Part shown: positions 9,858 through 64,000 of the stretch, piece after piece
Numbering within the stretch: the stretch's first letter is position 1
Layout: each line of letters opens with the position of its first letter
Origin: Amphiscolops sp. MND2022
Taxonomy: Eukaryota
Assembly (NCBI GenBank): GCA_964187785.1
Contig: OZ076409.1
Coordinates: 29,452,001-29,516,000, forward strand
DNA: 64,000 bases
Direction of reading: 5' to 3'
The notes under the pieces: model-generated
What the model was told of the DNA's origin: nothing
Database searches by the model: none
The model's input: only the letters and a program-made list of their open reading frames with translations
Position numbers and translations under genes: made by a program

Positions 9858-9869
9858 TCCTCCCCGGGC
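9858..9869 (-). other. Polypurine tract of element 1
   Basis: Minus strand GCCCGGGGAGGA directly abuts TGTAACG of the 3' LTR; nearly the same motif abuts the LTR of element 2. Confidence 0.75.
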
Positions 9870-14605: not shown

Positions 14606-14659
14606 ATATGATGATATACGACTGGCTGCGTCAAGTGCATGGGAATTGACAGGACTGAA

Positions 14660-14690
14660 CTAGAAAAAGGAAAACAACAGACGTCAATTT
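14660..14690 (-). promoter_or_regulatory. Candidate splice acceptor upstream of element 1 ORF3
   Basis: Minus strand TTGACGTCTGTTGTTTTCCTTTTTCTAG in the pol-ORF3 spacer (branch-like TTGAC, pyrimidine tract, AG). Confidence 0.5.
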
Positions 14691-14869
14691 GAGCTAAAAT
14701 ATTATTGCTGATGAATGCAATTGATTTGATAAACATTAAAAGACAATAAGATAAAACAGATTCGACAATTCACGTTAAAACCTAGTTCAGGGATTGACTC
14801 AAACAACACATATGCTAACAACAGGACGCGTGGCCTCCCTTATTGCCATTTTTTTTGTGCCACAGTGAT

Positions 14870-20800: not shown

Positions 20801-21780
20801 TACAAACGATGGTTCGTGGTCGCTTGCCTCATGAGTGGCTTTAAAGATTCGAGGTGTTTTGGGATTGCGGATAGTCACTTTCATTGCTGTCAGGTCCACC
20901 AACACGTTGTATGTGCGCAAGAATATGCGACCCAGGAGGAAATCCTCTGACCCAATATGATCGGCTATGACTACAAAGTTGGTCTTCAGTGTGTATCCGC
21001 CGAGCTGAAAGCTTACATCTTCGGCTATACCCACGGTGGTGATGCTTTTACCATTGGCAGCGAAGAGTTCAACGTCATATGGTGATAGGCTCAGCGTATG
21101 CTGGGAAGCAATCTTCTTGTACGCACTCAATGAAAGGATGGAAACTCCTGAACCGGTGTCAATCATGCCGAAAGGTGGTATCGGCTTTTGCAGAGGAGTT
21201 CCGAATGCTACTACTAGCGAGGCTCGCTCATCAATCTGGGCCTCCTCTCCTTGTGCATCTTGCACTCCAATGCTATAAAAACGCAGTTCTTGCCTGCCCA
21301 GATATAGGCCTTGCGGAAAGTGTCCTTCCAGGACAACAATCGCATCAAACCTCATGTCCACACCATCAACCGTGATCGCTACGTGGACTGGCGCGATTGT
21401 CTTCACTCTCTGTATCTGGGCCAGCTTGGTCTCATCATTCCTGGTAAAGTGGGGTAGTGGTCGCGAAGCTATCGTCAAACTGGTATTGCGTCACAGTTCT
21501 TCTTTCAATTGTGCTAATGTGAGATTTGGACGCGCCTTTTGTTCCGCGGATAACAACAGATGGATGGATATTAGTGTTTCAGTACAGTCAGGAGCTGGTG
21601 CCTCAAGTGTCGTCAAGATTTGTTTCTCACCACAAGTTACAACCGCAGGGCGTGATGGGCCTCCGTCTTCTGAAGTCGAGATCACCCTTATTTGATCCTC
21701 TGAATCGCAAAAGTCTGTTGAGTTTGCGACCGGGGCGTACCACGCCGCTTTTACTTGTTCTTCCGTTGCAACATTGTGAG
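14870..21780 (-). pseudogene. pol: pol of element 1: pseudo-protease, protease, RT, RNase H, integrase, AT-hook/Cys motif, tandem macro-like domains (several frameshifts/stops)
   Basis: MIDTGSGVSIL (PR); RFCCDFRPLN, PFGLCNASATFQ, YIDD (RT); FTLRVDNQAL (RH); H-x4-H...CLTC and HPRGNGLVER (IN); ORF pieces 20327-21478, 18885-20225, 17797-19014, 16323-17849, 14870-16531. Confidence 0.93.
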
Positions 21781-24280: not shown

Positions 24281-27200
24281 TGTTTTTGCAGCTCAACTAA
24301 ATTAGATTTTCTTTCGTCTTTCACTCACTCCTTCTCTTCAACAAATTGAATTAAAGGCAACTCAAAATGGAAGTTTTAATATCCCTTTCTCAGATATTCT
24401 AACTAAACTGTCGTACTATTAAGTTCTGGAGTTTGTAGCTCGTGATCGCCCTCTTGATTCTATTTCGAGATCAACTGACTGTCATAAACTTCACACTCCA
24501 AATTACATGCACTAACTCAAGATTACATGCACTGGTGCTGACACCACTAATCAGAACAGAAAGGTTTGTTTCCCCACTAACTGGAGATTCAAAGTTAAGC
24601 TTTTTAAGTTTTTTTTTATTATTTACAGTTACTCACACTAAACTACGCTTTATCCAGCCACAGGCTATGTAGTCGGGATAACTAAAGGTTTTGGCGCGCT
24701 ATCAGAACTTTGCAGAGATTTATTCAAGAAATCACCGCGCTTTTCTTCTGGGAGCGTACACTATGTCACTCGTACTGACTTTTAATAGGAGAGCACCTGT
24801 GGTATTGCTACAACAAGGGGTGTTGGGAACTAGACCTTGGGGGTGAGTAGGTGTTAGGACACTTTCAAACAAGAGAGTTATCGTAATCTGATCGTAGCAC
24901 GATCAATGGAAACACAGTTCTTTACAATTTCAAATGCTACTATACTCAATTTTCTGTCTCGAGACGCACCGCGTCCACTATCCACGTCTCCTAGAGAACT
25001 CCTTATTGCGTTCTAGCTCTCTCGCGTCATTTCTCAGTCGAGGCAAACGTGAATGCACCTATCAGTTCGCACTTAGGTGACCCTGGTGGCCGTTGGGAGA
25101 GAAAATACAATTTTTGTGTTTTGCACTCCTATGTCTCGTAGACAGCTTTTTGACAAACCCAAGATTTTAGGGTTGAGCTAGCTCCATTCTGATTACTTCA
25201 ATGGGACGTGCTATGGATGCCTGGTGTAGAACTAGGGTCGTTTAAACCTTCACTCGCAACTACACCTACGAAAAGTGTATAATTTTTCGCAAAATTTCTC
25301 AAAATCGGCAATTCTTTCGCCAAAGTGCACGCCTGGGGAAGGTGAATATCACTTCTAGAGCTACTAGCGACCCGAAAAATTAACACGGTATACTACTGTG
25401 ACCAAATCGTGGGAAAATCACCGCCGATTGCGCCAAAATTGATTATACGTGACTTGGGGTTGCTTCAGAATGTTGTTTGAAGAATCGACTATGTTGTGAA
25501 ATTTACAAAAGTCTGTCAAACTCGCCTTCTAGGCTTCCTAGCTACCTGAAATTTTGTATGCGAGCGTGAATTATGTCCACGTAACAGAAAAACAAAATAG
25601 CGGGATGCCCAAGTCAATATTCCGCAATCCGAGTTGACAAAACTATGATGTACCCTATTAGTCACTTCCTGGGGCCTAAATTCACAAAAATGTCAATTTC
25701 TCCAAATTGGACAGTAGCAAGCTGCTCAAAATGCACAAATCGTCGGGATCTAGTGCTGTGTGTACGAAAATGCAAGAATTTTAGTGCTGGGATACTCCGA
25801 AGGTATTACACTATGCTCAACTAAAATTCGATTTTTTTTGACAGTTTCGTACAATTTTTGAGCAAAACTGCGGCTAAGATTTCTCGATCACTAGTAATGG
25901 TAGCGCTACAAAAAATACACCACTAACGTAACTTTTTGCGGTCTACACGATGGTGCAAACTGTTTTGGGCTACTCCTGCTAGGAGAGATTTCGACCTGTC
26001 TCAGGAACACTACTTCAGTGTACCGATATTATCACTGAAATAACACGTTTTTGGTTATTTCTCGGCAACCACTGGTTGGAATCACACACGGTTTTCTGCG
26101 TTTGCAACGTTATACTCTATACTAACAGAAAATAGGCAAGCGAAACCTGGCAGGTTCCAAATAAGGTCTCTCAAATTAAAGTTCAAGTTACCCCTTTCAC
26201 ACTCTGGGAACAATGTGAAAAATACGTATTTTCCCTAGGAACTTTTTATTTCTCGGTTCCCAGATGTTCGGGATGGTTCTAACAGTACAGTAGGAAGGTG
26301 TGACAACTCTATTTAGGGGAGTGGGGTTATTTCAATTATTACTTTTGATGTTATTACTCTCAGGTCTATGGGGTCCTCTACTCAGGTCTATGTGTATCAA
26401 AGAAAATCAGAAGTTAAAGTGTCAATTTATATTGGGGAATGCTAAAAATCGTCTTGGCAGTAGTGTTTCGTATTACCAAGCTCGGGAACAACGTTTTTGG
26501 GCTGATCTTAAAGCTTGGGAACAAGTGCCCAAGGCTTCGCCCTCACCAATTTTGATCTTTTTAGGCCAAAATTGATGTTTTCTCTATAAAAATCGCTAAT
26601 TTTCTCAATGTTTCAACAATTTAGCCCAGCAAATTTTTCTGTTCCTGACCTAGCATGTCTGATGGAACGTTTTTTTGTATTCCCACTGGATACTTTTCCA
26701 CTAGATTTGAACTTTCAACACCTCAAAAATCGATATTTGAGCTATATATGGTGTTGTTTTCAAGGTTTTCGGGCTCAAATTTTTAATCAACTGGTCCAAA
26801 CACCCACAGGGTATTTTCCCCAGTTAATTTTAGTGGGAACAGGCCTGGGAATATGCTTTTTGGGCCGAATATTAGCAAGAATTAGCAATATAACACGATT
26901 AACGTGGGTATACGGCAACTACAGGGGTACTGGAGGTGTGATGTCGGAGGTGCTCACTCGTCAGCTATGTCGTCAGCTCAATGTCGTCAGCTAATTGGGG
27001 CCTTCAGCACTCGTCCTTCCTGTCCCCATACATTGCTAATTTACTGAAACGGAGCTACAAAACCCTTTAAAACCAGTTCCGGATAGGCCGGATTAACATT
27101 TTCAACAGGTGTTATCAAAATACAAGGGGTACACTGTCTGAAATCGTCGATTTTCGGTTTCAGACCTCGGAAATACACAGGACACGCAGGAAAAACACTA

Positions 27201-27331
27201 GTACAAAGCCCACAGGGCTAGAATAAGGCAATAAAAACAATCTAGGACTCTCCAACAAGTTTTCCTAGGTCCAGACCTAGCAGGGCCGGAAAGCAGGAAA
27301 AACTCCAATTATGGCGAAAAGATGGAAAAAT

Positions 27332-27349
27332 GTCCCTTGTGGGGCGCCG
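27332..27349 (-). other. Candidate primer-binding site (tRNA-Lys-like), displaced 16 nt from the 5' LTR
   Basis: Minus strand CGGCGCCCCACAAGGGAC matches the retroviral tRNA-Lys3 PBS TGGCGCCCGAACAGGGAC at 14/18 positions; atypical spacing. Confidence 0.35.
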
Positions 27350-27365
27350 TAAAAACTACTCTAGA

Positions 27366-28077
27366 TGTAACGTCAAGCAAGTAACGCACATACCAGAACT
27401 GGGACAATACTTAGGTTGCCTAGACAGGAGACCATAGTCCTATAACAAGCCTAAATACCAGTTTTTCGTCCCTAAAGGTCTCCTAGGGCCTTTTCCAAAA
27501 CACCGTGGAGACTCCTCTTATTAGAGCTCCGTGGCGACGTGCCGGCACACTCAAAATCCGGACACGTCCCACAAGCATGTAAAAACGTTCCTAAAGACTT
27601 CCTGCGGTCCTTCATACTCCCGAGGTCCGAAAACAGGGTTCTAGCTGAAATGCATTCTATTTCAGAAAATAACGTCTAAATACTCCATTACAAGGATCTG
27701 GCAGATCCGACATCATCATAAATCTGTAAATCAATACTAATGACATCAGAACTATTCAAGATTGGCACTTCTGGCATGTTTCAATTGAATTCGCGATTCT
27801 CTTCATCTTCTTTGCTGTGGGATATCTGGATCTCAGAACGTTTTTGTATTAAAAACGCACTTTTCTGGGGAGATGACACAAATCCGAGCATTTTTCTTGT
27901 TCTTCCACATCGTGTCAGTGTCTTTTCTTCTTTTCTGGGTCGGGGTGGGGGGTCTCTTTTTTTGTGCTTCCTTTTTGATTTCAACGACCTGCCAGGTCGG
28001 CCATTTTGATTCGCACACTTTCTGGTCCTTGATCGAATTTTTCATCGAAAATTTGGTGCTGACTGGTGGACGTTATA
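27366..28077 (-). repeat. 5' LTR of element 1 (712 bp)
   Basis: TGTAACGTC...GACGTTATA; direct repeat of 9146-9857. Confidence 0.96.
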
Positions 28078-28691
28078 TAGTACTGGAACATTTATTCTGA
28101 CCAATTAATGGAAATTGAATATATTTCTTCGAAAAAGCACTTTATGAAGACTTGGAGCATGAAAAGCATAATTTGTTCAGAAAGGCAGCATAGTTTTAAG
28201 GGTCTGGCGGCATAAATTCGGGGTACCTGTGTGTTATCACCGCTTCTCAATTAATTTTTGCAGCTTATTACACGACTGAAGTTATTTTGCATTGAAATGG
28301 CGGTAAAACTGATAGCAACGCAAAGTAAAAACTATATATCAGTAAAACTTGCTAAACTTGAACGACACTAAAACTTTGATGGATCTCTCAAACAGCTTGA
28401 TAAAAGTGTCGAATATAACAAAAAAAGTCGAAATGTTTTTGCATGAAAGATTCCGTAAGTTTCAGAAAACGAGGGATTGCAATGATTTTTTAGAGCTCTT
28501 AGAACGACTTTATTAGAATGTCAACCCGAGAAAGCACAACTTTACAATTTTGGTACGAGAAAAGACAAAAGTATCAGACAAACTCCTCAAAACAACTTTT
28601 ACAGATTGAAACAGATCAGTATAACGCATTAAACTAACAATGAATCAGATTAAGCAAACATGTTCAAGCTATGATCAGTAAAATACGTATA

Positions 28692-46777: not shown

Positions 46778-46898
46778 TTACGTCCGAGAGAAGGAATAAC
46801 GTATAAAATCCAAAAAACGCCCAAAATTTTCGAAAGTCATGAAAATACGACTGAGAAACGGGAAAAACACATGAAATTGGAAAAAACAAAGTATTTTA

Positions 46899-48902: not shown

Positions 48903-49617
48903 TGTAACGATAAGCGCTGGCGCTTGAACCGCAACGTAGAGTGGAGGAACTAGAACAGCGAATATAATCCGGGACTTAGATCTCCGCGGCCCTAGCTCAT
49001 TCTCCCTCCGAAGGAGCCAGTCCCAAGGTGGGGGAACCGTCTTGTTGGAAACTCTCTGGCCTGGTCCTAGTCTGTAACTGCTAAAAGTAACGGGCATCTT
49101 GCATGTCTCAAGACCACTGCTCAATTAGCCTTTAAAAAGGGGGCTGAGAACAGGAGAATGTTGAGCCATAGTATTGGAGAATCTGATAAAATCGACATCA
49201 AAAAGGGTAACTACAGATGTTAAATGGGCAGCGCTCGAGCATATCAATCTACTACAACAAGGAAAGCACAATAAGCATAACAATATCAGAAGTTCGAGTT
49301 ATCTAACAGGAACGAATCGACCATGGCTTCCCAGCGCTAGCGCTCGTCACCGCACAGGACACCGCAGGATCTTCAGGCGAGCATCTGGAACACCGGTTTC
49401 TGTTACCTATGTAGTGTAAATGCCAAAGATGGGCACATCACCGTGTTCTAGGGACTGATTTCTACGTCTTCTCTTCTCGTCGTCTCTCGCGGGGGGCGAT
49501 TTCTGATTTCTGATATGCTTTTTTGACAGGTCTTTCGTCTGGAGCATGTTTGAGTGCCACGTCAGATTTGAACGAATTTTTGCTTCGAAAATTTTGACAT
49601 GGGCAGTTGCCGTTACA
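48903..49617 (-). repeat. 3' LTR of element 2 (715 bp, partner not in window)
   Basis: Perfect 7-bp inverted termini TGTAACG/CGTTACA; length close to the element 1 LTR; adjacent PPT. Confidence 0.85.
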
Positions 49618-49630
49618 TCACTCCCCGGGC
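49618..49630 (-). other. Polypurine tract of element 2
   Basis: Minus strand GCCCGGGGAGTGA directly before TGTAACG. Confidence 0.72.
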
Positions 49631-50390: not shown

Positions 50391-53300
50391 CTACTGGGCA
50401 GAGCTGTGTCGAGCTCGATTCTTGGAGGCATCCTCCGAAACCCCGGTTTCCTCCGACGCTATTGACGCTCTTCGCTGTGGAGATGTCACGGTAATCACTG
50501 TCTCTGAATCAGAAACGTCTTCAGGGAGTGATAATTCAGCGGTCGACTGTACCAGTACGGCGTCGGGGGTTAGCTCAGCCGCATGCTCACCGGACTGTGG
50601 TTGCGACGACTGGGGACTGGTTTGTGTCGATGGTGGACTCACAGGCTCTGGCTGTAGAACATGGGTAGGCAAATCCAGAGTCATGGGCCGGTCGATGGGA
50701 TGACTCAATGACATGGCCATTGTGGGTGCCAGCATGGCAGGCGCGAACGCCTGTTGTCTCTCGAGTTCAGCTCTACTCTCCACGGCCAAGGATATTCGTT
50801 TGGAGACCCAGCCAGGCTGACTCCAGAGCTCGCAAGCTCGCTTCCATTTTGGGAAGCTGGCAATCTCCAGCTCCAAGCAATATCCTTCCTACTCTGCGCG
50901 GGCTTCGGGGCCTAGCACGGAATTGATCTCATCGTGCTGGACGATGGACATATCTCCTGACATCGTCATCTTGGCCTGCGGTCTCCAGGCAGCTCTTCTA
51001 GGGAACGGAGTCACGCGTCTTTGCAGGTTCCTCTGACGAGTCTGAGCTGCTCCTTCAATCCAATTCGGAATCTGAGCCAATTCCATATACTGGATTTGTC
51101 GATTGAAGGCTTCAGGGGCGCGACCAACGGGCTTTGCTCTGGGCCATCCCAGTGGCTCCTTCCAGTAGTGATTTGGGAAGGTGATGCACTTGAAGGCGTA
51201 CAGGGGATCTATTGGTGGACCAGCACTAGTGCTGGCACGGATCACTTTGCGTATAAACTCCTGCGACCAAGGGAATCTAAAGGGGACTCCATTCAGGCTG
51301 AGAGGCGCGGAGTACCAGTTGACTGGGCCGTATTCTCGTGGCAAAGGGCACGCCTTTCGTGTGCGAGCACGCAACAGACCCATCAAGTTCTCTTCCAGTT
51401 GTTTCTCCGACTTCAAGGTGGTATAACCATGCGGCATCTCGCCACTCAATACGGCCTGTACGATGCGCTGATAGGTCAGTGGGTGGCGTCCTTGGAGATA
51501 GGTGCAGAAGGAGACCATGTGCAGCTGCACTGCTCTCGCCAGTGGTTTGGTGGGATACCGGCACACACCGACCGCACCGAAGATTGGGGCCAGGACGGAA
51601 GCCATAACGGCCACGAAGTCCTCCACTTCGGCCAGAGTCAAATCGGCGATTTGCTGGGGCATAGGAAATCCCGCCGTTTCCGCAGGGAGTTGACGCTCGG
51701 AATTGTGGAGGGGTTGCGACTGATCCACGCCTACGAACAAGCCAGAGGCGAACACTAGGGTGGAATACAACCAATGTTGGAGGGACGCACGCATGCGTTC
51801 CAGCTGGGTGACATAATCTTGTTGGTCCTTGGAATTTAGGAGGTGACCCCATCGAGTTAGGCTGCGTAGCTGTCCCTGCGCGAGGATCAGGTAGCTGTAA
51901 AAGGTGACTAGATCACTGGATACTACCAGCTCGACTAACATAGCCAGGGGACCTGCCACAAACTTTGTCGGGCCCATGGTTAGCGCGAGCGCTAACATCT
52001 CTCCTACAGTAGTTTCGCCGATGGTTTCCAACAATTTGTCAGTCTGCACATTGGTGAGCAAGAACTCAGAGGCTATTACATCGATGTTCCAGCCTAGTCC
52101 GAGACTGGTGCAAAAGGCTTCCAAGGGACAGTTAAGCTCTTGAGCTACCTCGGCCAAGGTTCTGTCCACGAATCTGGACTGATACCATTCGGCATACGTT
52201 AATCCGGCGGCATCTACTTCAGTCTTCAAGTTGGTCGCCTCCACAGCCACGACGTGCCTCATGCCCACGGGCAACTTGACAGGCTCTATTCCCGCGGCAA
52301 ACCGAATTTGGGGAATGGTCCTTTCGACCGTGCGTGTGGCAGGCCATGTTTCAATTTCCTTCACGAGCTCTGCCAGCTCTGTTCGTACGGGAATCTCTTT
52401 GTCTTTCCGCACCAGCCAGTTATAACGTCGAACGGCCTCTCGCTCACTCATGTTAGATGCTCGCATGACGCGATTCCCGTCCAAGTCGAAGGCCATTCGC
52501 CCCATACACATTCCATGGTCGAACAGTATGGCATCGTCGATAGTCAGTTGTGCATTTCCCGATCGCTCCACAGTGATTAGCACTCTTGATACAGCAGCAA
52601 AGAAGGCAGGGTATGACAATGCATCGGGGCGTAGGTCTCCGCGATCAACCCGAAGATTTGGCGCACATATAGCAAACTCGATTCGGCGCGCCTTGCATAC
52701 CTCAGACAAGATGTACACAAACTGCTGCAAGCTTCGTTGCCAATACATGAATCCCGGCGGGGATGTGAAGAGCGCGAGCGCTCCCAGACGACCTCGAAGG
52801 ATCCCTGCTGCACGCTCCATTGCATCTGCAACCACGTTTACTAAGGGCGCCACATTCCCAGATCTACGGGTATCTGCCATGAGGGCATCCAGGTTGTGTA
52901 GCAGTCCTTCACAAGCCATGTGGTCGATCAAGTTGGTGAAGACTACACGTCGCGGGGGTGGCTCTCTTAGGGACCCTCTCATGTTTGGGTCGTACATAAC
53001 CGCGACCATCTCTGCGACTTCGGCGAAGCGGGAGAGTGGCATTGTTAACACCAGCACATCGGGCAGAAGGTTATCGATAGGCAGATCACTCTTGCATGTC
53101 GAATCTACCGCTACACAATAGCGCGCACGCTGCAGAGCTGCTTTCAAGAGGGGCTTCATTGACCTGATATTGCGAGCGTAGCGGGCGTTTGCTTCCCAGG
53201 TTTCTCCTTCGCGCAATATGTACCTGGCGGGAAATTGCTCGGTGAGGTCGTGCTGCAGGCGAGCCATGTAGTTGTTGGGTGTGGCGGGCAGTTGCTCTCG

Positions 53301-54662
53301 AGCACGCTGTTCCCAGGCTTGCTCACTTAGGTCCGCATCACTGGCACGTAGCGATCGAGTTATTTGAGCCGCAATGGTGATTCTGCTCACCTCTCTTTGC
53401 TCGGCGTCCGACGGCGGTGCTCTCCTTCTAATCGCACATGTGTTCGGGTGCAAACACTCTGCTGCCATCCAAATGCGTTTACTATCGCTAGTTACCACGG
53501 AGCCGGATACATCATCTGACGGGGGAAGAAAGGCGGGAGGACTGGTCTCTTCGACTGTCTCGGGCACCTCCAGGGACATGTTGGCAGAGCCTGTGCCCAA
53601 GGGCACAGGATTCGTTTCAGTATTCGCATCCACACTGCCGTAGCGGTTAATGGCCTCTTCCATGGACATTTGAGGCGCGCCTACGCCCAGGTGGCCGACG
53701 CGATATGGAGGCCTCACGACCACTACACTCTTCATTTGCGATTGCTGGGGTACATCTGCTCGCTTGTCCGGAGGGGGACGACTGGTCGGACTTTCGGTCA
53801 CGGAATTATTGCGTGTAGCGACGATATTTTCCTCAGTAAGTCGCTTCCGTCCAGTTTCCTCACGGGGATATGTTATAGCGCTGGTGCTTGGTCCAGCCGT
53901 GGTTTCTGCTTCCATAGACACAGCTTCGGCTAGGGTGGTGGGTGGGGTGACACAGCCCGAGGGCTGAGCTGCGGCTTGCAAATAGTGTGCCAATCCGGGA
54001 ATCCTTTGCTCAACTGCACGAACGAAGTCAGAGGAGTTGGGGTAGTTGGCGACCGCCTGCAGGGCCACAATCACCGCTTGCTCGCTGGCACTCCGTCCGG
54101 TAAGATTTAGATTAGGCACTGATGGCAGTTGGGACCCCGAGGGCTCCCGACTTGAGGCTGATTGATTGGTAGTGTTTTGCGTCATCGTTGCCTGGGTTCC
54201 ATATGGTGCCCCATAAGCAAGTGAGCTAGAATACGGCGTCATCTGCACTGGATTCGGTGCCGAGATAGAAGGCAGCGATGGGACGTTGACGGGCATCATA
54301 CGCAGTGATGCTTCTTGTTCGAATCTGGTGCCCTGGCTGGGGCCATGCACTGTGATTGATCTTTCGTCCAAGAACTGGTGAGTCAGGTCGTACCCATCCC
54401 AGGCATTGTTTGTGCACGTCAAGGTGCGACGATAGCCTGCCACCTCCGTAGTGATCGACAAGGATGCATTTGGCAGCATTTGCATCGATTCAAGCTGGGT
54501 CAGTAAGGCAGCCACCCCAGCTACGGCTACTGGCGAAAGACCATCCCGCAGCCTCTCTTCGACATATTGGGCCTGATTGACCCTCTGCGCTCGCGCAGAT
54601 TCCTGGGGCCTTGCACTACTAGACCCTGTTGCAGGCGCTGAACTGTTTGGGCAATGGGCCAT
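50391..54662 (-). CDS. ORF3 of element 2, ~1,420 codons with one in-frame TAG at 50889-50891; degenerate SGNH/GDSL-like domain
   Basis: 1257-aa ORF plus same-frame continuation 50391-50876; homologous over most of its length to element 1 ORF3. Confidence 0.88.
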
Positions 54663-54674
54663 TAATGCATAGGT

Positions 54675-54690
54675 CTAAAAAGGACCACTG
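54675..54690 (-). promoter_or_regulatory. Candidate splice acceptor just upstream of element 2 ORF3
   Basis: Minus strand GGTCCTTTTTAG|ACCTATGCATTAATGGCC, about 12 nt before the ORF3 ATG. Confidence 0.45.
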
Positions 54691-54957
54691 TTAGGCTTAC
54701 AGGGGCAAGTTCTTTCTGGAGCGAGCCGTGGGCCGGTTCGCCCCTCAATTGCAGCAATGCAACATCGGCTCCGTAAGGGGGCCACTACAAACTTAAAATT
54801 TAACTCTAACTAACTAACGAACTAGAACAAAACCTTTGAGTAAACAGCATGACAAATTAACATTTCGAGAGCATTTCAAGACTCTTCCATGGTTGTTACA
54901 AGAATTGTTACAAAGACTGAGGGCAGAGGGAAAATGGGGACAACTAAAATGATAAGG

Positions 54958-56640
54958 CTACTCCAGCCCTATAGTTAATATTGATACATATACGCGGCTA
55001 TGCAAAACCACGCGAATACCAGTACCCTCGAACATGTTCGTTAGAGTATGGTACAGATTGACCAACGAGAAAGCCGGTCTCTCGGGGTCCAGAATGGGTA
55101 AGTGGACCCGTGTGGATCCTTTGTCTATCAGGCGCTGTATCAAGTACGTCATGCAGCGCAAGTAGTCATCGGTCAGCAGCGGTGCGCGCTGGTTAGCACG
55201 GACTATTAACAGGTGAATACTTTGATTAGGGTTGGGGTTCACATCAGGCGGGATAGTGAGAATCTCGCCCACTTTAGGTCGTAAGGCAAATACATCTTCT
55301 ATGCCGCACTCCCGCAGCACATATCGCAAGGCGGCAGAGTTGGTCTTTAGGTCAGCAGGGCATGCTAACACTATGTCGCCCTCGGCCTGCAAAAAATCAG
55401 ATTCATCGTAAGAAACATGTTCGGCGGAATTCGGATACAGGGCTCCCGGGTAAACAATCTCTCGTCCGGGACCATTGTCGTAGGGCAGACACACGCGAGG
55501 CGTACGCCCTTGGACTGCAGCCAGGTCTTGCCACACTGAGCGGGGCATCGCTCGATTGTCGCTGCCGGCCTTTACCCACGCATCTAAAGTTCCCAGGGCG
55601 GCTTTGGGGAACAAGGGGATCTCGAAAGTGTGAGTCCACTCATCTAACAGTCGAATTCTGGGATAGGTGGCGAAACACGTGATAAATAATTCCAGCCACC
55701 ATGCAAACTTCACCTTGCCTCGGTACCAGTCTATGATGTGGAAGCAAAGTATTAAGTCCACAGTGGTGAGGGTCCTCAGACTCTCTAGACAGGATAACAG
55801 ATTCAACGGTTCCACCATCGCCTCCACTCGTGGAGCTGTTACCAGCAGCCACCAGTGAGGAGCCGGGCTGTATACCCCTCCTGGTTCCACCTGGACTCCA
55901 TACTTATCGCATAACAAGTCGGCAGTGATGCATCGGGCCATCTGCACCGGTTCCCTTTCAAAATTGAATGGTCCAAACGCAATATTGCTGGGCACAGGGG
56001 GCAACACCGTGGGCAGGGTAAACTCCAGGCCCTTTCCATCGCTAGTCCACTCCTTAAACCTAGGACAAGGGGCCTTCGCTACCCCGGGCAGTGACAACTT
56101 CTCCAGGATAGTGTCTACAGGGTGGTCTCCGGACCGCTCTACAGCTGAGTAGGTTTTCTCGGCCCGCACCGTGAGGCGGTACACCAAGTTTTCTCTCTCT
56201 TCCGGAGGAACTCCCCGGACTCCAATGGGAACCCTCCGGTTCTCATTCACAGCTAATAGGCAGACACAATCTCGCAGCCCGCAGGTTCCACACTTGTAGC
56301 GCGGCTGCCGTTTACTCCTTAGTTGATACATAAGAGCAGTTGCAGATGCCTCTGTTAGCGTCTCTGCAGTTCTGGGAGCTTCCGTTTCGGCCTGGATTGC
56401 AGTTTCGGTTTCGACATTTCTCGGTGTTTCTTTCTTCCTCGTCCTTGCTTTCGCTCGGATCAGCCGTTTCTTCTGTGCCTTGGGTGGTCTCCCCCTCCCC
56501 CTTTTGAAAGAAGGAGCGGTCCCCGCTCCTGGCGAAGTCTCGGGAACTTCAGGCAGATCGGGCTGAACGTTGCTGTCGCTGCTGGCAGATTTGAGAGGAA
56601 TCGGAGGGGCGGTCGGCCATATGGGATAGTTACTAAGGAA
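54958..56640 (-). CDS. Pol C-terminal extension of element 2: AT-hook, CxxC-x4-CxC, two TARG1-like macro domains
   Basis: The frame of ORF 54958-56331 is open upstream through KRGRGRPPK to a small deletion near 56640 (LLTNP..FLSNYPIW vs LLSNPALTDTLSNFPLF in element 1); C-terminal 150 aa follow the OARD1/TARG1 pattern. Confidence 0.8.
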   Translation of the reverse strand, partial: FLSNYPIWPTAPPIPLKSASSDSNVQPDLPEVPETSPGAGTAPSFKRGRGRPPKAQKKRLIRAKARTRKKETPRNVETETAIQAETEAPRTAETLTEASATALMYQLRSKRQPRYKCGTCGLRDCVCLLAVNENRRVPIGVRGVPPEERENLVYRLTVRAEKTYSAVERSGDHPVDTILEKLSLPGVAKAPCPRFKEWTSDGKGLEFTLPTVLPPVPSNIAFGPFNFEREPVQMARCITADLLCDKYGVQVEPGGVYSPAPHWWLLVTAPRVEAMVEPLNLLSCLESLRTLTTVDLILCFHIIDWYRGKVKFAWWLELFITCFATYPRIRLLDEWTHTFEIPLFPKAALGTLDAWVKAGSDNRAMPRSVWQDLAAVQGRTPRVCLPYDNGPGREIVYPGALYPNSAEHVSYDESDFLQAEGDIVLACPADLKTNSAALRYVLRECGIEDVFALRPKVGEILTIPPDVNPNPNQSIHLLIVRANQRAPLLTDDYLRCMTYLIQRLIDKGSTRVHLPILDPERPAFSLVNLYHTLTNMFEGTGIRVVLHSRVYVSILTIGLE

Positions 56641-57905
56641 ATTGGGTTCGTCAACAAGGATGCTGAGGTTCCTGGTAACGATGTTTCTTTTTCGGAGGAG
56701 GATATCTGTGGAGACGGTGAGCGCACGCGCTCATGGTCAGAGAACAGTTGAGGTAGTACACGGGCGGGGGATATCGACTGATCCAACGCAGCCGGAGGAG
56801 CCGCAGGCTCCACTAGATCCTCGTCAACTGGATTAGGAGGTATCGGCAACATGGCATCGGATAGTTCGTCATCTGTACCCGAAGTGGAATAGTCAAATTG
56901 CTGATAATGCGGGCGGGAGCCGCCTGCGCGAAGTTCCGTGCGTAGTCGAGTGTCCATCCAGTGACGTCGACGTGAGGGCAAAGATGCATCGGACGCTTCT
57001 GAAAGTAGTTGTTCAGGTTTATACGACGATAAAGACTTATCGTCATCAACTACGTCGACGGAACGTTCAGGTTCGGGGTCCATAAGTACCACCACCTCAC
57101 CACTGTCCGTGTGTGCAGTAGCAAGTTCAAGTGGGCCACTGTGGTGCGGTTTAAGACGCTCAAAATGAACCTTTTGACCTGTGTCTAGTACATAGACACG
57201 ACCGTCCTGAAAGACTTGTACAACCTTGTGCGGGCCTCGCCAAGCACGCATCAATTTCGGGGAACCCTTTTGCGGTACGTAGCGGCAAAAAACCCAGACG
57301 AGCTCGCCTACTTGGTAAGCTCGCGCTTGTATAGCACGGTCGTACTTTAACTTTTGACGCAATTGGGCTTGGTGCGTGTTACGCCGTACCAAGTCATGTA
57401 TTTCCTGCTGGCGAGCCAATACATGATCGACATACGCCTCATGCGACTCGAATGATTTGGCTGCAAATTCGGGATACAAAAATGTGAGAGGGATGGCCTT
57501 CTCTACACCACGGGTCAGCATGTAGGGTGAGAAGCCAGTGGTGGCGTGCCTCGTAGAGTTGTAGGCGCCCATGACCTCATCAAGACATTGGTCCCAGTCG
57601 CGCATACGGCGGGAGCAAAAAACTCGCAGTAGGGTTAATAATGTCCGGTTTTGACGCTCCACCAAGCCTTGGGTTCTCGGATGGCTAGCCGTAGAGGTTA
57701 CTTTGGTAACGTGGGCTGCTTTTAGGAATTCGTTGGATACCTCAGCAGTCAAATTTGGAGCATTGTCAGACTGCATTCGAGTGGGTGTGCCATGACGGGC
57801 GAACCACTTTTGCAGCAGCAACCGAGAGGTGGTCACAGCGTCGTAGTCGTGATGACTACAGGGAACTGCTTCCGCGAACTTGGAGAAATGGTCAATTATG
57901 ACCAA
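56460..57905 (-). CDS. pol: Integrase core and C-terminal region of element 2 (frameshifted from upstream pol near 57915)
   Basis: VIIDHFSKF, MQSDNA, HPRTQGLVERQN, WRGPHKV...VHFERLK. Confidence 0.93.
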   Translation of the reverse strand: MVIIDHFSKFAEAVPCSHHDYDAVTTSRLLLQKWFARHGTPTRMQSDNAPNLTAEVSNEFLKAAHVTKVTSTASHPRTQGLVERQNRTLLTLLRVFCSRRMRDWDQCLDEVMGAYNSTRHATTGFSPYMLTRGVEKAIPLTFLYPEFAAKSFESHEAYVDHVLARQQEIHDLVRRNTHQAQLRQKLKYDRAIQARAYQVGELVWVFCRYVPQKGSPKLMRAWRGPHKVVQVFQDGRVYVLDTGQKVHFERLKPHHSGPLELATAHTDSGEVVVLMDPEPERSVDVVDDDKSLSSYKPEQLLSEASDASLPSRRRHWMDTRLRTELRAGGSRPHYQQFDYSTSGTDDELSDAMLPIPPNPVDEDLVEPAAPPAALDQSISPARVLPQLFSDHERVRSPSPQISSSEKETSLPGTSASLLTNPISLVTIPYGRPPLRFLSNLPAATATFSPICLKFPRLRQERGPLLLSKGGGGDHPRHRRNG

Positions 57906-60900
57906 GATGCCAGTGTTATTACTGAAGGGCAGATCTTCAGGTGATCATATTGGACCAATTCGTTGAAGTACCCGCTCTGGATGTTCTTTAGGTGGAATCG
58001 GACGTCACCAGGCTTATCTCGAACCTGTTGACAGGTGAGGCATTGGCCAACGTAACGGCCCACGCTGCGTCGAATACCAGGCCATGTGTGACGTTCTTGA
58101 ATCCGAGCCACCACTTTGGAGATACCTTGATGTCCCATGGCGTCATGCGCGCGGAATAAAATCTCATGCTGGTACAGTTGAGGCATGACGATCATGCACG
58201 GGCGTTCGTGCAGGGGACGTTGATTGGGAGGGTATTGTACGCAAAGCACACCATTCTTGTTAATGAACAGGAGAGTTTTCTTCTGACGGTAGTAGTTGCG
58301 TGCGAACTCACGCACGTTCTCAGGAAACACGTCATGATCGATGGGTTCGTTTAGCACCAACTTTTTGAGTGCTAGCACATGAACATCACGGTTTTGGGCT
58401 AGGATCAAGTCTTTGATACCATGCACGGTGTGAGCATGTTCGTGAAGTTCAGTGTTGATGTCTTTAAGAGCCATAATTGAGTCGCGTACACCCGAGGGAG
58501 TACCTTGCAACGCAACAGGATTCGCCCCAGCAATAGCATAGACGGTACGTGAAGATACATTTACGGCATGCGTCGGTAATAGATAATCTTCGCGTGCTTC
58601 ATCAGTGACATCAATCCAGTCCTCAGGGTAGTCTGGATAGGCATCCTCGTGCGGTTGCAGAGCAAGGGAAGGCGGAGGCGGCAAGGGTGCTGCGAATGCT
58701 TTCGCTTGTCTGTCTCTCCTGCTCGCTCGTTTTGTGCGGCGAAGCACGCGTAGCAATTGGTTGGGAGCCTTAGGCTCCAAGTTCTGCAGGTGCGCAGGTA
58801 GTTCGGGATGATTCGGGATGACTCGACCCTGAAGGTCGAACCATGGGGCAACAGGCAGTTTATCAAATTCGTCAGCTGAAAGGAAATTCCAGCGTTCGCT
58901 CGCAGCTGGCTGCTGTGCAAGCTGTTTCTCTCGGCATCGGTACTCGTTGGTTCGTTTGCTCAAGCCATCGGCGTTTCGATGTTGAGTTCTTGGGCGGTGT
59001 TCCACGCGAAAGTGATACTTCTCCAGGGTCATAATCCATCGGCCGATTAGCGCTTGATCCGTGGAGTAGGTTTTCAACCAGGACAAGGCTTGGTTGTCCA
59101 CCCGCAGGGTGAATTTCCGGGGACATAAATAGCTGTGGTTTTTCACTATGAAATAGTAGGCGGCGAACATTTCAAGTTTGGGAGCTCCGTATTTAGCTTG
59201 TGTGGTAGTGAGCTTCTTGCTGCCGTAAACTATCGGCCTCAGGCGTCGTTCACCCGGAGGACCTTGCCACTGGTGCAGGATACCAGAAATGGCGACAGCA
59301 CTAGCGTCAGTGTCCAACACAAACTCTCCTTCGGAATCAGGCTGCGCGAGCGCAGTTGCCTCGATCAGGGCTTTTTTGATTTCATTGAATGCGGTTTGTT
59401 GCTCAGGACCACATGCGAAGGTGGCATTCAGTCCAGTGACGGCGTGCAGGGGTGCAACCAGCTTAGCGTGCCAAGGGATGAATTCGCGATAGTAATTGGC
59501 GAATCCAAGGAAGCTCTGCATCTCCGTCTTGTTACGGGGAATTTCCCAATCGCGCAACTTGACGACGGCTTTCGGGTCGGGCTTCACTCCTTCTGCGGAA
59601 ACCACTCGTCCCAAGTACTTGATCTCCGATTTCATGAAATCGCATTTGGCCACGCGCATTTTGAAACCGGCTTTACGGAGGCATTCAAAGACCTCACGTA
59701 GGCGTACCATATGGTCTTCCACAGTCTCTGTGGCAATCACGATATCATCAATGTAGGCCATGACCATGCTGCCCTCACGATTGACAATATTCCTTAGCGC
59801 ACGCGCTATTGATCGCTGAAACGTGGCAGATGCATTGCACATACCAAATGGCATTCGCCGCCACTCAAAAGGTCCTAGTTCACAAGCAAAAGCGGTTTTG
59901 TGGCGATCCGCCTTTCGCACAGGAATTTGCCAAAAGTCCCAAGCAAGGTCTATGCTGGTATAAATCTTCGCCTTGCCTAGCCGTGCCAGGCTTTCATCAA
60001 TACGGGGCAAGGGATAGGCATCCTTAATGGTTACCTCATTTAACGGGCGGAAGTCGCAGCAAAAGCGCAACTCCCCGTTTTTCTTTTTCACCATTACAAT
60101 GCCGCTCGCCCAAGGGGACAGCGAGGGCTGTATCATTCCCAGAGCTAAGAGGTTCCGCACCTCCTGATTGGCACGTTCGGCCTTCTCAGGGGACATCCGG
60201 CGAGCACCTTCGCGATGTGGTACAGCCCCTGGTTCCACCTCTACGGTGTGGTTAGCGATAGTGCACCGACCGATGTCAGCCTTGTGTTTCATGAATAGCT
60301 CATCGAATTCATCGAGGAGGTTACTGAGAGACTCGCAGGCGCTAGCGCCCCATAAATCCTTAACCGCCTGTAACTGAGATTCTGGCCCAGGAATCGGAGC
60401 CATTAGCTCTGGGTCCGTACGCTTGCGAATTTCGCGCTCCGATAGTCCTGCCTCGCTAGGGTCAGTTGAGGACAAAAACTCAAATTCTGAAGAAGAGGTT
60501 AACTCAGAAGCAGTGGACAGATTCACTTCACTATAAATTTTATGAACAAAATTTGCACGACTGTCGTCGGCGTCAGTTTTTGTGCGGGTTGTTGTGGGAG
60601 AGTCCAGACACTGAGGTACTGCTTGGTATACTACCGTTATGGGTACTACGGTGCCCAGTTGTACACCACACCGCATGCGTTGAGGGTTGCTGGTGAGATT
60701 TATCAGGCTCACAAAGAGTGTCCCTGTCTCACTGACAGTGGCCACGCTGTCCTCTAAAAAGACGACATTATGCAACGTAGTGTCAGACAAAGAGGCATTG
60801 AGCGCTACGCTTTGAAACATCAGCGGCTCTAGTGCATTGGTGACGAGCTTTGCTCTAGCCACCGCACGTTCGAAAGGTTGCAGAACCAAGTCACTATCCA

Positions 60901-62017
60901 AAACGACTGGGGTAGCTATCGAAGTGTCACCTACCTGTGCGTGAGCATGATGCCACACAGGCTTCACTGGTGCTCGCACCACAATCTTCATAGATGTTAG
61001 ATCCACTAACACCTGGTAGGAGCGGAGAAAGTTCCGACCAAGTAGGAAGTCTTCCACACCCATTGCGTCATCTACCACCACAAAGTTCGTTTCAAGTTCA
61101 TATCCTCCCAGCTGGAAATGGATATGTTCTGCGAGGCCGTAGGTCTTTATTGTCTTCCCGTTGGCTGCGTACAGGTCAACTTGGTAGGGTTTAAGGACCG
61201 TTCCAGTTCGAGCTGCCACTCTGTTAAAGGCGGAAAACGTCAGTATGGAGACGCCCGAGCCAGTGTCCACCAGTCCTCGCAGCGGGATAGGTGTTGCATG
61301 AGGCACCACGAAAGAGACCACGAGCGACGCACGCTCATCTATACGCGCTTCACCGGTGGGCTCCTGATGATTGATGTTATAGCATTTGAGCTCCTGAGGA
61401 CCCAGACAAATGCCAGGGGGAAATACATCCACCACCACACAGGCTTCGAACTTCACATCCACTCCATCCATTGAAGCACAGACTGGCACTGGGGAATATG
61501 TTGTCAGAGTCGTAGACTCTCCCGGAGCGTACCATTCTTTCGGTCGAGGCAACTCGTTTCGTTTGTAGAGGATAGACAGTTCGACCCATAGCTTCGCCAG
61601 GGTTACCGTCGGCCTACGCGTTTGCTCAGCTGCCAGCAACAGGTGAATCGAAATCAGCGTCCGTCCTTGCGGGTCGAACGTCGTGGGTTCCAAGCAGGTC
61701 TGAACTTGCTTAGCACCACAAGTGAATGTCATCGGAGTGTGGAACGCAGGCGGTTCCGCCGGATGTAGCATCAACACACGGTCATCTTCCAAAGGTACGG
61801 TGTGCGCGGCGATGCCAGCTGATTCGACCTCAGCCCATCGATTGTAGGCTAACTCGTCACTGGGCTTCGGCGCATGGGAGTGCTCACCACATTGCACTTC
61901 CGCCTGATCGAAAAGTCCACAGCTCGTGCATTGATAGATCCCCGGATGACCTTCAAGGATGCCATCGGTCGCGTCTTCCGTGGTGACCTTTACGCCCTCT
62001 GGTTCGGAGGCAGTCAT
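57896..62017 (-). CDS. pol: pol of element 2: pseudo-protease, protease, RT, RNase H, integrase N-terminal zinc domain
   Basis: 1373-aa ORF with LVDTGSGVSIL, DFLLGRNFL, YIDD, LDTDAS, NADGLSK, HDAMGH...CLTC. Confidence 0.96.
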   Translation of the reverse strand: MTASEPEGVKVTTEDATDGILEGHPGIYQCTSCGLFDQAEVQCGEHSHAPKPSDELAYNRWAEVESAGIAAHTVPLEDDRVLMLHPAEPPAFHTPMTFTCGAKQVQTCLEPTTFDPQGRTLISIHLLLAAEQTRRPTVTLAKLWVELSILYKRNELPRPKEWYAPGESTTLTTYSPVPVCASMDGVDVKFEACVVVDVFPPGICLGPQELKCYNINHQEPTGEARIDERASLVVSFVVPHATPIPLRGLVDTGSGVSILTFSAFNRVAARTGTVLKPYQVDLYAANGKTIKTYGLAEHIHFQLGGYELETNFVVVDDAMGVEDFLLGRNFLRSYQVLVDLTSMKIVVRAPVKPVWHHAHAQVGDTSIATPVVLDSDLVLQPFERAVARAKLVTNALEPLMFQSVALNASLSDTTLHNVVFLEDSVATVSETGTLFVSLINLTSNPQRMRCGVQLGTVVPITVVYQAVPQCLDSPTTTRTKTDADDSRANFVHKIYSEVNLSTASELTSSSEFEFLSSTDPSEAGLSEREIRKRTDPELMAPIPGPESQLQAVKDLWGASACESLSNLLDEFDELFMKHKADIGRCTIANHTVEVEPGAVPHREGARRMSPEKAERANQEVRNLLALGMIQPSLSPWASGIVMVKKKNGELRFCCDFRPLNEVTIKDAYPLPRIDESLARLGKAKIYTSIDLAWDFWQIPVRKADRHKTAFACELGPFEWRRMPFGMCNASATFQRSIARALRNIVNREGSMVMAYIDDIVIATETVEDHMVRLREVFECLRKAGFKMRVAKCDFMKSEIKYLGRVVSAEGVKPDPKAVVKLRDWEIPRNKTEMQSFLGFANYYREFIPWHAKLVAPLHAVTGLNATFACGPEQQTAFNEIKKALIEATALAQPDSEGEFVLDTDASAVAISGILHQWQGPPGERRLRPIVYGSKKLTTTQAKYGAPKLEMFAAYYFIVKNHSYLCPRKFTLRVDNQALSWLKTYSTDQALIGRWIMTLEKYHFRVEHRPRTQHRNADGLSKRTNEYRCREKQLAQQPAASERWNFLSADEFDKLPVAPWFDLQGRVIPNHPELPAHLQNLEPKAPNQLLRVLRRTKRASRRDRQAKAFAAPLPPPPSLALQPHEDAYPDYPEDWIDVTDEAREDYLLPTHAVNVSSRTVYAIAGANPVALQGTPSGVRDSIMALKDINTELHEHAHTVHGIKDLILAQNRDVHVLALKKLVLNEPIDHDVFPENVREFARNYYRQKKTLLFINKNGVLCVQYPPNQRPLHERPCMIVMPQLYQHEILFRAHDAMGHQGISKVVARIQERHTWPGIRRSVGRYVGQCLTCQQVRDKPGDVRFHLKNIQSGYFNELVQYDHLKICPSVITLASWS

Positions 62018-62033
62018 TGGTTTTCGGGCTTGG

Positions 62034-63908
62034 TCACGATTGGGGCACTCGCGAGCAAAATGTCCGTTTTGCCCACAGTGAAAACAAGCACCTACCGGCG
62101 CTCGGGCGGGAGCTAGGACAGCGAGAGCTGGGACATTTGGGGGGGGGCGCCGGAGGTGGCAAGACGCCCTGCGGCATGACCATCTTGTTCGGCGGCAGTG
62201 GTGCGAAAGGATGAGGTCTAGACCTCATGGCTAATCTGGGATCATAGGGTTGTTGAGGTTGGGTGGGTCTGGGACGATTTCGTTGCAGCTGACGCGTGGT
62301 AAATCGCAAGGACTCTACGGTAGGGGGTTCGGTAAGAAAAGTCTCCGAGGCGTATACTATGGCAAGTTCACGCCTCAACACTGGATCTCGCACACCTTCC
62401 ATGAAGCGCTGCAAGATTTCATAGCGTTTGGTAATGATACTTTCTTGCGGGAATCCTTGGCTCCTGAGACCCTCTAAAGCGTCTAAGTACTGCATCCAGT
62501 CCTCTTTTTCTTGTTGGACACGGCTTTGGAAGGTCTGCCGCACCTGCATACGATTTCCTCCCGCGCCAAATCGGCTAGATAGCAACTCGAACACCTTCTC
62601 GGGGGTGTCACGTTCAGACTCAGCCTTGTTGATGATGTAGTTGCGAGCCTCACCCTCGAGATGACCAATAATGCTCCAGGCCCGATCTTCGGCCGAGACT
62701 TTGGTTTGGACTCTTTTCAAGTATCGCTGCATCACTAAGATCCAGCCATCAATAGACCCGTCCTTAGAGCCTCGATACACGCTGGGTTTGGTTTGAGCCA
62801 GGTCACGTCCCGCAAGCAACGGTGCTAGTTCTTTGGACATCGCTTTGGAAATGGCGGCAGTGAACCTCAGTTGCTCGGGAGAGATGACCTCAGCCTCTCC
62901 TTCCTTGGGTGCCACTTCATCAGTACCGTCGTCACTGCCATGCGTGGCTCGTACTGAGAGGTTCGCTATGTCTTCTTTCTTGCGAGTGCTACTCGCACAA
63001 GGAGCGCCCGAGGGCATTCCGTCCTCGGCTGTCCAGTCGGCGGTCAGATACAGGGAGTCCGTTCCAGAAGCCATGGTAGGGGCCGTCGCATACGCAGCTC
63101 CATCAGTCTGGGACCCTAGTGTGGCCTTGGTACAGGATAAATCAACTTCGGTAGAAGTATCTAGATAGATAGGTGACATTGGGTCCACACCTTGGTCTCG
63201 GGTGGCACTTCGAACTACGGAGGAGGTTATTTGACTCATCGACGAGGAGTCGTGGGGCCCTCTCACCTGCACCCGTGCAGGTTTACGCTCCACATCAGCC
63301 ATGATGAGTACGGAATCCTTGGTTCGGGTTTCAGGCGTCGTCGACTTGGAGGTGCTAGGCTTCAATGCACTCGCCAGCTCGGGTTTCGTTGCCCGACCCA
63401 GGTGCGATGATTCCGGAATCTTAATTGAATCCGCGACTGGCACACCTTCAGTGGCACCAGATTGTCGTGGGAGGGACCTCTCGCGCCTCATGATGTTGAT
63501 AGCATTGAGCACAGTGTGCATTTGGTTACTCAAATCATTGATCTGGGTTTCCACACGAAGTTCACGGGCCATCAAAAGGTCATTCATCTCACCCATTCTG
63601 TGGCCTAGTGCATCTACGCGAGCACTCTGCGTATTCTGCGCGGTTCGCAGTTGATCACTGACCTGCAATCCTTCTCGCATCGTTGTCTGCAACGTTCTCA
63701 TATTTTCTGCGATGGCACGATGTTGGTCATTGCACCCAGCACGAGTTCTAGCCAGTTCAGCTAAGGCACGTTGGGTCTCAGCTTGGGCTTCCAATATTGC
63801 GGCTTTATACACCGAAGATCGTTGGGATGATGCCACTGAACCTGCCACGCTCCTCGTACGAGGCACCTCAAACTGACGTTCACCTACATTTATCATGGGT
63901 GGTCGCAC
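62034..63908 (-). CDS. gag: gag of element 2 (N-terminus may extend beyond the window; 1-nt shift in a C homopolymer near 62140)
   Basis: KPSVYRGSKDGSIDGWILVM...LEGEARNY...MQYLDALEGLRSQGFP; the knuckle CFHCGQNGHFAREC is read in the +1 frame after the C run and continues into the pol ORF. Confidence 0.88.
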   Translation of the reverse strand: MRPPMINVGERQFEVPRTRSVAGSVASSQRSSVYKAAILEAQAETQRALAELARTRAGCNDQHRAIAENMRTLQTTMREGLQVSDQLRTAQNTQSARVDALGHRMGEMNDLLMARELRVETQINDLSNQMHTVLNAINIMRRERSLPRQSGATEGVPVADSIKIPESSHLGRATKPELASALKPSTSKSTTPETRTKDSVLIMADVERKPARVQVRGPHDSSSMSQITSSVVRSATRDQGVDPMSPIYLDTSTEVDLSCTKATLGSQTDGAAYATAPTMASGTDSLYLTADWTAEDGMPSGAPCASSTRKKEDIANLSVRATHGSDDGTDEVAPKEGEAEVISPEQLRFTAAISKAMSKELAPLLAGRDLAQTKPSVYRGSKDGSIDGWILVMQRYLKRVQTKVSAEDRAWSIIGHLEGEARNYIINKAESERDTPEKVFELLSSRFGAGGNRMQVRQTFQSRVQQEKEDWMQYLDALEGLRSQGFPQESIITKRYEILQRFMEGVRDPVLRRELAIVYASETFLTEPPTVESLRFTTRQLQRNRPRPTQPQQPYDPRLAMRSRPHPFAPLPPNKMVMPQGVLPPPAPPPKCPSSRCPSSRPSAGRCLFSLWAKRTFCSRVPQS

Positions 63909-64000
63909 TCTCTTGTGTTTGCCATAGGCACAAACTCTAGTGTTACCTCGAGCGACTCCAGACCCCTGCGGTCTCGCACAACTCGTGTTCCCTGTGTAGG

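Follow-up and report, generated by a model that had tools for sequence, protein, structure and literature searches.

The window analyzed here, 64,000 nucleotides of Amphiscolops sp. MND2022 (assembly GCA_964187785.1, contig OZ076409.1, positions 29,452,001 to 29,516,000 of the forward strand), contains two related long terminal repeat (LTR) elements, A and B, both on the minus strand. Element B is a young Gypsy-type LTR element and, downstream of gag and pol, it bears a third open reading frame (ORF3) in the position of an envelope gene (env). According to structural modelling, the central domain of the ORF3 protein almost certainly has the SGNH/GDSL fold of esterases and, by the canonical mechanism, this domain is very likely dead. 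The gene is under strong purifying selection, with a ratio of nonsynonymous to synonymous substitution rates (dN/dS) of about 0.04-0.08 in the core, and there is hardly any doubt that it is not a conventional env.

A profile search of a 50%-identity library returned 766 ORF3 relatives at E ≤ 0.001, and the best 150 that were listed are mostly unnamed fragments. The 48 rows of the modelling alignment comprised the window sequence, four genome copies and 43 database proteins, 42 of which came from the 45 listed matches overlapping the domain, the other being P0038. The AlphaFold model of residues 444-744 derived from it presented a predicted local distance difference test score (pLDDT) of 88.9 and a predicted template modelling score (pTM) of 0.90. 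Compared by VIA-align with 48,161 solved chains, it matched 26 chains at Z ≥ 8, the best being platelet-activating factor acetylhydrolase (PAF-AH; Z = 11.1, root-mean-square deviation (rmsd) 3.7, 181 aligned residues). Each of the 50 rows listed is an esterase, a lipase, an acyltransferase or a protein related to these; GDSL or SGNH is named in 11 titles, and most of the other rows are likewise taken as SGNH members. By these matches the domain has the flavodoxin-like alpha/beta sandwich of the SGNH/GDSL hydrolases, with its parallel sheet and the order of its blocks. The ZfL2-1 esterase (4C1B) is absent from these 50 rows, although absence from the listing does not exclude a match. Foldseek ranked the SGNH family first with a probability near 1, and the top rows of the viral library were SGNH proteins as well, so that SGNH matches came from three structure libraries. 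In the ESM Atlas the best value for the SGNH region was 0.77, with no usable match for residues 790-1150. An independent 10-row model of residues 375-1257 (mean pLDDT 45) had the same fold for the SGNH part; beyond about residue 960 its pLDDT was below 50, and no fusion-protein fold was listed among the structure matches. Finally, profile-profile comparison with the intact esterases of the same genome gave a score of 23.9, whereas none of 30 column shuffles exceeded 17.5.

Some results weigh against this assignment. Foldseek E-values were never below 0.001, the HH-suite probability was 2.6-6% with an alignment spanning only blocks I-II and strand 4 and not block V, Pfam gave no SGNH match in the 48 members, and the PDB sequence search gave none for the domain. 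On ORF3 and its relatives Pfam returned nothing relevant. Matches of the protein and five profiles to designer pentatricopeptide repeats and to a phage stalk segment, obtained in the PDB sequence and profile searches, were judged to be chance. The SGNH signal itself is not regarded as chance, because the model is confident, three structure libraries agree, the profile score lies above the shuffles and dN/dS is far below 1. The SGNH/GDSL-like fold and the block assignments of the initial annotation, which had named structure prediction on ORF3 segments as a check, are thereby borne out, and all ten motifs that it had quoted from the two ORF3 copies were found where it had read them (Table 1).

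Concerning the catalytic residues, the initial annotation had described the loss of the catalytic His with retention of Asp-Ser. This proved correct, and the loss appears to be wider, as the block II Gly, the block III Asn and the acid and His positions of block V are all predicted to be replaced. The Asp-Ser of block I aligns with the G-D-S of the intact esterases of the genome in the profile-profile comparison. The block II Gly is found in only one of 11 full-length proteins, P0198, the most distant full-length relative, which keeps Pro-Gly. At position 579, where the oxyanion Asn would be expected, I, L, F or M is present in 37/39 rows and Asn in one, while the neighbouring D580 and H581 are each found in 36/39 (Asp replaces the His in P0198). 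The acid position 675, three before Arg678, has D or E in 4/35 rows only. Many rows are decayed fragments, and rare residues carry little weight. The register of blocks I-II comes from the HH-suite alignment, and that of block II is anchored because P0198 keeps Pro-Gly there. Blocks III and V were placed by spacing and predicted secondary structure and not by residue-level superposition, block III leaning on the conserved Asp after strand 3 and block V on spacing and the start of the terminal helix. Eight aligned intact esterases of the same genome, chosen as distinct families from 39 Pfam matches, all keep S, G, N, D and H; their Ser-to-Gly spacing is 17-23 (22 in ORF3), Gly-to-Asn 27-31 (36 in ORF3) and Asn-to-His 86-97 (99 in ORF3). 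Two points argue against a dead domain: the register of blocks III and V is deduced from spacing and predicted secondary structure, and Ser521, Asp580, His581 and Arg678 are highly conserved and could make a different active site. Catalytically intact SGNH esterase ORFs are numerous in the genome; they are multi-copy and belong to several families. Some score above the Pfam OSK cut-off, and at least one of the ORFs, read by eye, is the ORF1 ahead of an endonuclease-like ORF of a long interspersed nuclear element (LINE).

The ORF3 frame of element B had been presented as a single gene of about 1,400 amino acids. This length is true of the family, but the copy in the window is interrupted: 1,257 codons are followed by an in-frame TAG and then by 165 codons in the same frame. 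Sister copies of B are open for 1,427-1,430 codons from stop to stop. When the genome was searched with 300 ORF3 residues, 3,257 first-look candidates emerged. Scoring was confined to the best 131, and for 63 of these the match is free of stops and its frame stays open for at least 1,420 codons; full-length open ORF3s occur in other families too. The ORF3s of A and B share 28% identity over 585 aa (E = 4e-59), and the next piece 37% over 151 aa. On either side of the SGNH domain lie conserved regions without relatives in the searches made: residues of about 25-130 had no PDB sequence match, and residues 702-1150 had no match in Pfam, PDB sequences or the Atlas. The strongest invariance of the whole protein falls in the 998-1116 block, which has no assigned fold. 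Inside it, the 19-residue window at 1016-1034 has the highest Kyte-Doolittle value (1.73-2.28) in each of the five families scanned; this stretch, overlooked in the initial annotation, may be a membrane-dipping or buried helix. Both the low-complexity linker and the tail are long. The start of ORF3 lies 296 bases 3' of the pol stop in element B, and comparable pyrimidine-AG sites were read by eye ahead of ORF3 in other families. Just past the candidate splice acceptor, a two-codon upstream ORF (ATG-CAT-TAA, 54662-54670, minus) overlaps the ORF3 start.

Table 1. Features of elements A and B, with positions counted from the first letter of the window.
Feature	Position	Strand	Remarks
ORF3 of element B	50391..54662	minus	1,423 codons in one frame, ATG at 54662; in-frame stop in this copy
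Premature in-frame TAG	50889-50891	minus	sister copies open across the region
N-terminal conserved domain (about residues 25-130)	54273..54590	minus	14 invariant columns in 6 sequences; 21-40% identity across families
Low-complexity S/T/P/Q-rich linker (residues 131-400)	53463..54272	minus	15-31% identity across families; S+T+P+Q 34-48%
SGNH/GDSL-fold domain, predicted pseudo-esterase (about residues 512-701)	52560..53129	minus	AlphaFold model and VIA-align
Conserved predicted-helical region (residues 702-1150)	51213..52559	minus	dN/dS 0.036-0.077 where computable; low-confidence model
Internal hydrophobic stretch (residues 1016-1034)	51561..51617	minus	inside the most conserved block
Candidate splice acceptor	54675..54694	minus	branch-point-like CTAAC, pyrimidine run, AG; 12 nt 5' of the ORF3 ATG
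Block I CVAVDST	53117	minus	element B
Block II VLTMPLSR	53051	minus	element B
Block III-like VVFTNLIDH	52946	minus	element B
FTSPPG	52769	minus	element B
DLRP at block V place	52637	minus	element B
Block I IALFMDST	13070	minus	element A
Block II VMNLPCTS	13001	minus	element A
Block III-like LIYSNMIDH	12896	minus	element A
FVSPPG	12719	minus	element A
TWRP at block V place	12587	minus	element A
Block I Asp520-Ser521, kept, nucleophile position	53100..53105	minus	D 30/31; S 27/31, T 2/31
Block II oxyanion-Gly position, Leu543, predicted replaced	53034..53036	minus	G in 0/38 alignment rows
Block III equivalent N577-x-I579-D580-H581	52920..52934	minus	oxyanion-Asn position hydrophobic; family-specific His follows
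Block V Arg678-Pro679 at predicted catalytic His position	52626..52631	minus	R 32/35, H 1/35; ahead of the terminal helix in the model
Element A	9146..28078	minus	complete 18.9-kb relative of B; LTRs 713 bp
Element A LTRs	9146-9858 and 27366-28078		99.0% identical to each other
Element A ORF3	10375..14700	minus	several frames; SGNH region about 13070-12530; family distant from B
Element B 3' LTR	48903..49618	minus	716 bp, TG...CA
Element B gag	62034..64000	minus	runs on beyond the window; PNMA-like match (E = 8e-4) and CCHC knuckle (Pfam)
Element B pol	54958..62224	minus	protease, reverse transcriptase, RNase H, integrase; GPY/F-like WRGPH, then degenerate macro-like region; frameshifted in this copy (Pfam, motifs)

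Regarding selection, dN/dS of the SGNH domain was 0.053-0.078 in 4/4 natural subfamily pairs, that of residues 702-1000 was 0.036-0.061 and that of the linker 0.10-0.13; these values are rough, with 6/32 cells saturated and dS above 1 throughout. For two of the same pairs the reverse transcriptase (RT) gave 0.031 and 0.076. Sequence identity in ORF3 rises and falls with that in RT (rho = 0.81 for 21 non-independent pairs), with ORF3 cores 28-30% identical at 72% RT identity, which suggests that ORF3 was acquired before the families split and has been kept since. We infer that it derives from a retroelement-type esterase. Its Ser-to-Gly spacing is like that of the genome esterases and of ZfL2-1 (S143/G165), P0198 has Pro-Gly at block II, and one intact genome esterase, read by eye, is a LINE-type ORF1. 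Pattern scans of prokaryote genomes and metagenome contigs, which were weak scans, gave no confirmed ORF3 relative. One partial relative is labelled Bacteroidota, on an 816-bp contig, probably through mis-binning.

As for function, we tentatively favour, by analogy, the explanation that ORF3 may be an accessory gene whose product, with its likely dead esterase fold, would act as a cytoplasmic scaffold. The protein would be expressed from a spliced mRNA through the acceptor-like site 12 nt before its ATG. The former active-site pocket would have lost hydrolysis and would now hold a lipid or similar ligand, through which the scaffold would tie the particle or ribonucleoprotein (RNP) of the element to cell membranes. 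A trafficking role could follow, for instance to the germline or to a neighbouring cell, in place of env. The ZfL2-1 esterase is reported to bind anionic phospholipids and liposomes, as do mutants of its active site, and its liposome binding was put down to a basic surface with an isoelectric point (pI) of 10.8 (PMC3905857). A membrane role is proposed for ORF3 because these mutants still bind lipid and because the internal hydrophobic stretch is conserved; binding of lipid or of RNA by ORF3 itself is suggested by analogy. Against the scaffold explanation, the ORF3 SGNH domain has a net charge of -1 to +6 and a pI of 6.5-9.5 (11 proteins), unlike the basic ZfL2-1; for about two thirds of the conserved protein no fold is assigned, and the main function may reside there; and the hydrophobic stretch has prolines and may merely be buried.

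Should that unassigned part do the work, ORF3 could be a counter-defence factor or an adaptor for host proteins (anti-silencing or immune decoy) in which the SGNH domain is structural and the helical region active. We consider this unlikely. In its favour, the lineage has been very successful in multiplying and its LTRs are near-identical, it is a block without an assigned fold that shows the strongest invariance, and pol too has a degenerate macro-like region, so that the lineage may keep enzyme folds as binders. The strong purifying selection across the core, measured as dN/dS by region, differs from the fast change often seen at host interfaces, and no similarity to known suppressors was found.

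A doubtful proposal is that the dead SGNH domain binds RNA as the OSK domain of Oskar does and, together with the linker, recruits element RNA to granules or the germline. OSK, though not an enzyme, has the SGNH fold and binds RNA (PMC10792757), and it does appear among the structure matches (5A4A; Z = 7.5, rmsd 3.8, 156 aligned). Phosphate binding by the invariant Arg that stands at the His position is conceivable, and the linker and tail, both of low complexity, are long. However, OSK ranks 42nd of the 50 listed rows, under ordinary esterases, and is no closer to ORF3 than they are, and no LOTUS domain was detected in ORF3. OSK has lost the Ser, with Asp in its place (PMC10792757), while in ORF3 the Ser is retained and Arg takes the place of the His. 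The Pfam OSK profile gave no match among the 48 ORF3-domain members, and in the genome it listed other loci and not ORF3. Moreover, the domain is not strongly basic, the isolated ZfL2-1 esterase is reported to have made no stable complex with oligo-A RNA (PMC3905857), and CCHC knuckles are already present in Gag.

Equally speculative, and improbable as a whole, is a bolder form of the scaffold explanation, by which these elements would be an undescribed Gypsy lineage (3-bp target-site duplications, TG...CA ends, macro-like pol) and ORF3 a new class of envelope substitute. Its product would be cytoplasmic and matrix-like, with the pseudo-esterase gripping lipid through the His-to-Arg pocket and a helical domain of about 450 residues and new fold bending or crossing membranes, so that particles would move between cells without a glycoprotein.

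That the domain is a non-canonical enzyme, a hydrolase or acyltransferase using Ser521, His581/Asp580 and Arg678, seems quite improbable. It would account for the conservation of these residues (S 27/31, D580 36/39, H581 36/39, R678 32/35), and some SGNH enzymes are described without a side-chain acid (PMC10792757). On the other hand, neither oxyanion position retains its residue, two relatives have Thr for Ser, and P0198 has Asp for His581. The Asp before Ser is structural in the SGNH fold (PMC10792757), and its conservation is hence expected in a dead domain too.

Envelope features were sought by simple hydropathy and motif scans in six proteins from five families. No signal peptide was seen in 6/6 proteins, the best 9-residue hydropathy in the first 40 residues being -0.06 to 0.24, although a spliced-on leader exon might supply one. 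There was no C-terminal anchor in the last 150 residues (best 19-residue hydropathy 0.07-1.02), and furin-type R-x-K/R-R sites were missing from 5/6 proteins, with one in the sixth at 8 residues from its end. The scanned proteins have 7-20 Cys each, and none of the 68 residues shared without change by eight divergent proteins is a Cys. Pfam and structure searches of ORF3 gave no fusion-protein match. The earlier reading of this gene as something other than an envelope, without signal peptide, furin site or C-terminal anchor, therefore agrees with these scans and searches. The alternative that ORF3 is an envelope or fusion glycoprotein, strongly diverged and containing an SGNH module like the viral haemagglutinin-esterases, would fit the env position, the single internal hydrophobic stretch and the virion proteins with SGNH domains among the structure matches, but the hydrophilic N-terminus and the lack of an anchor, of a conserved furin site, of invariant Cys and of any fusion-protein match make it very improbable.

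Comparison with described systems places ORF3 among several retroelement SGNH proteins. The closest arrangement is that of the Vesta LTR elements of bdelloid rotifers, whose ORF3 has an SGNH domain in the env slot, lacks a transmembrane anchor and was proposed to have an auxiliary or membrane role (Rodriguez et al., 2017; PMC5408684). As described there, the Vesta ORF3 is about 1.3 kb with intact catalytic residues, in contrast to 4.3 kb here with the catalytic G, N, D and H predicted to be replaced and with two large conserved regions without known match flanking the SGNH domain. The same report mentions catalytically dead GDSL ORFs in Athena-L Penelope-like elements. The ORF1p esterase of ZfL2-1, from the CR1/L2/RTEX LINEs, shares the retroelement SGNH fold, an identical Ser-to-Gly spacing and a flexible linker ahead of the domain, but it is an active enzyme with its high pI, and the element that encodes it, in ORF1, is a non-LTR one (4C1B; Schneider et al., 2013; PMC3905857). 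Ngaro elements also carry a separate downstream SGNH hydrolase ORF; they are tyrosine-recombinase elements with split direct repeats, unlike the present ones (PMC9210276). The giant Burro elements of planarians are likewise oversized and Gypsy-like with accessory domains, but they exceed 30 kb and have an in-frame env-like region and apoptosis/ubiquitin domains, and no SGNH domain is noted in the accessible part of their description (PMC6431247). A literature search found no description of a pseudo-esterase ORF3 of about 1,400 aa, although Repbase and paper supplements may already hold such families.

The elements themselves have the hallmarks of Ty3/Gypsy, namely the order of protease, RT and RNase H followed by integrase, a CX2CX4HX4C knuckle, a GPY/F-type motif and TG...CA LTRs. 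Their target-site duplications depart from the 4-6 bp expected of Ty3/Gypsy (Metaviridae): 3 bp with TG...CA ends were found in 15/16 insertions having both ends seen, across five families. These comprise 10/10 LTR pairs of family B, one further B copy, element A and three other families, one of which has an empty-site copy alongside; the exception is one A-type copy with 5 bp. Such 3-bp duplications have been called peculiar to Troyka (Kojima, 2025; PMC12440569; see also PMC11673190) and are indeed common to both. As described in the first of these sources, Troyka ends in CG...CG, has a CX2CX8-10HX4C knuckle, is without a GPY/F motif and has an internal part of at most 7.7 kb, against TG...CA, CX2CX4HX4C, WRGPH and about 17.4 kb in the present elements. 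Membership of Troyka was rejected on the termini, the knuckle and WRGPH, despite the 3-bp duplications, and their occurrence with ordinary ends weakens duplication length as a Troyka marker.

The 5' LTR of element B lies 3.1-3.8 kb past the end of the window and is 99.4% identical to the 3' LTR, for a total length of 18.9 kb. After the integrase of both elements (54958-56000 and 14870-15900, minus), about 330 conserved residues resemble two tandem degenerate macro domains, with weak profile support. The C-terminus of pol weakly matches macro domains of other retroelements of the genome (E = 2e-4 to 3e-3, 20-locus set), and these macro-like domains look OARD1/TARG1-like. Several other multi-copy retroelement families of the genome have better-conserved macro domains in long ORFs, after the integrase or between RNase H and integrase. 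In both gag genes (22454-24292 and 62034-64000, minus) the N-terminal extension ahead of the capsid region is of unusual length and includes a coiled-coil-like segment, and the 5' untranslated sequence before gag measures about 2-3 kb. In all families seen, a primer-binding-site-like TGGCG... does not adjoin the 5' LTR but follows a T run, at about 14-16 nt downstream of the LTR (27330-27365, minus; also beyond the window end). Element B is inserted in the RT ORF of a LINE (45033-49124, minus), an ORF present as two 1.6-kb copies of 96.5% identity.

LINEs, Penelope-like elements, Ngaro elements and the LTR elements of rotifers all carry SGNH domains, whose conserved catalytic residues have been taken as a need for hydrolysis. 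That SGNH ORF3s of LTR retrotransposons are already published (PMC5408684) makes the present gene less of a surprise, and what appears new, as far as the accessible text of that report goes, is its long and likely dead version. The gene also illustrates that occupying the env slot does not make an env, and two conserved ORF3 domains without known relatives are now on offer. In a very successful lineage the predicted fold has persisted under strong selection, in families that share only 28-30% identity, with the canonical catalytic set apparently gone. Since the fold was kept while the catalytic set was lost, binding would here be separated from catalysis, and these elements may offer a direct test of the membrane-targeting idea.

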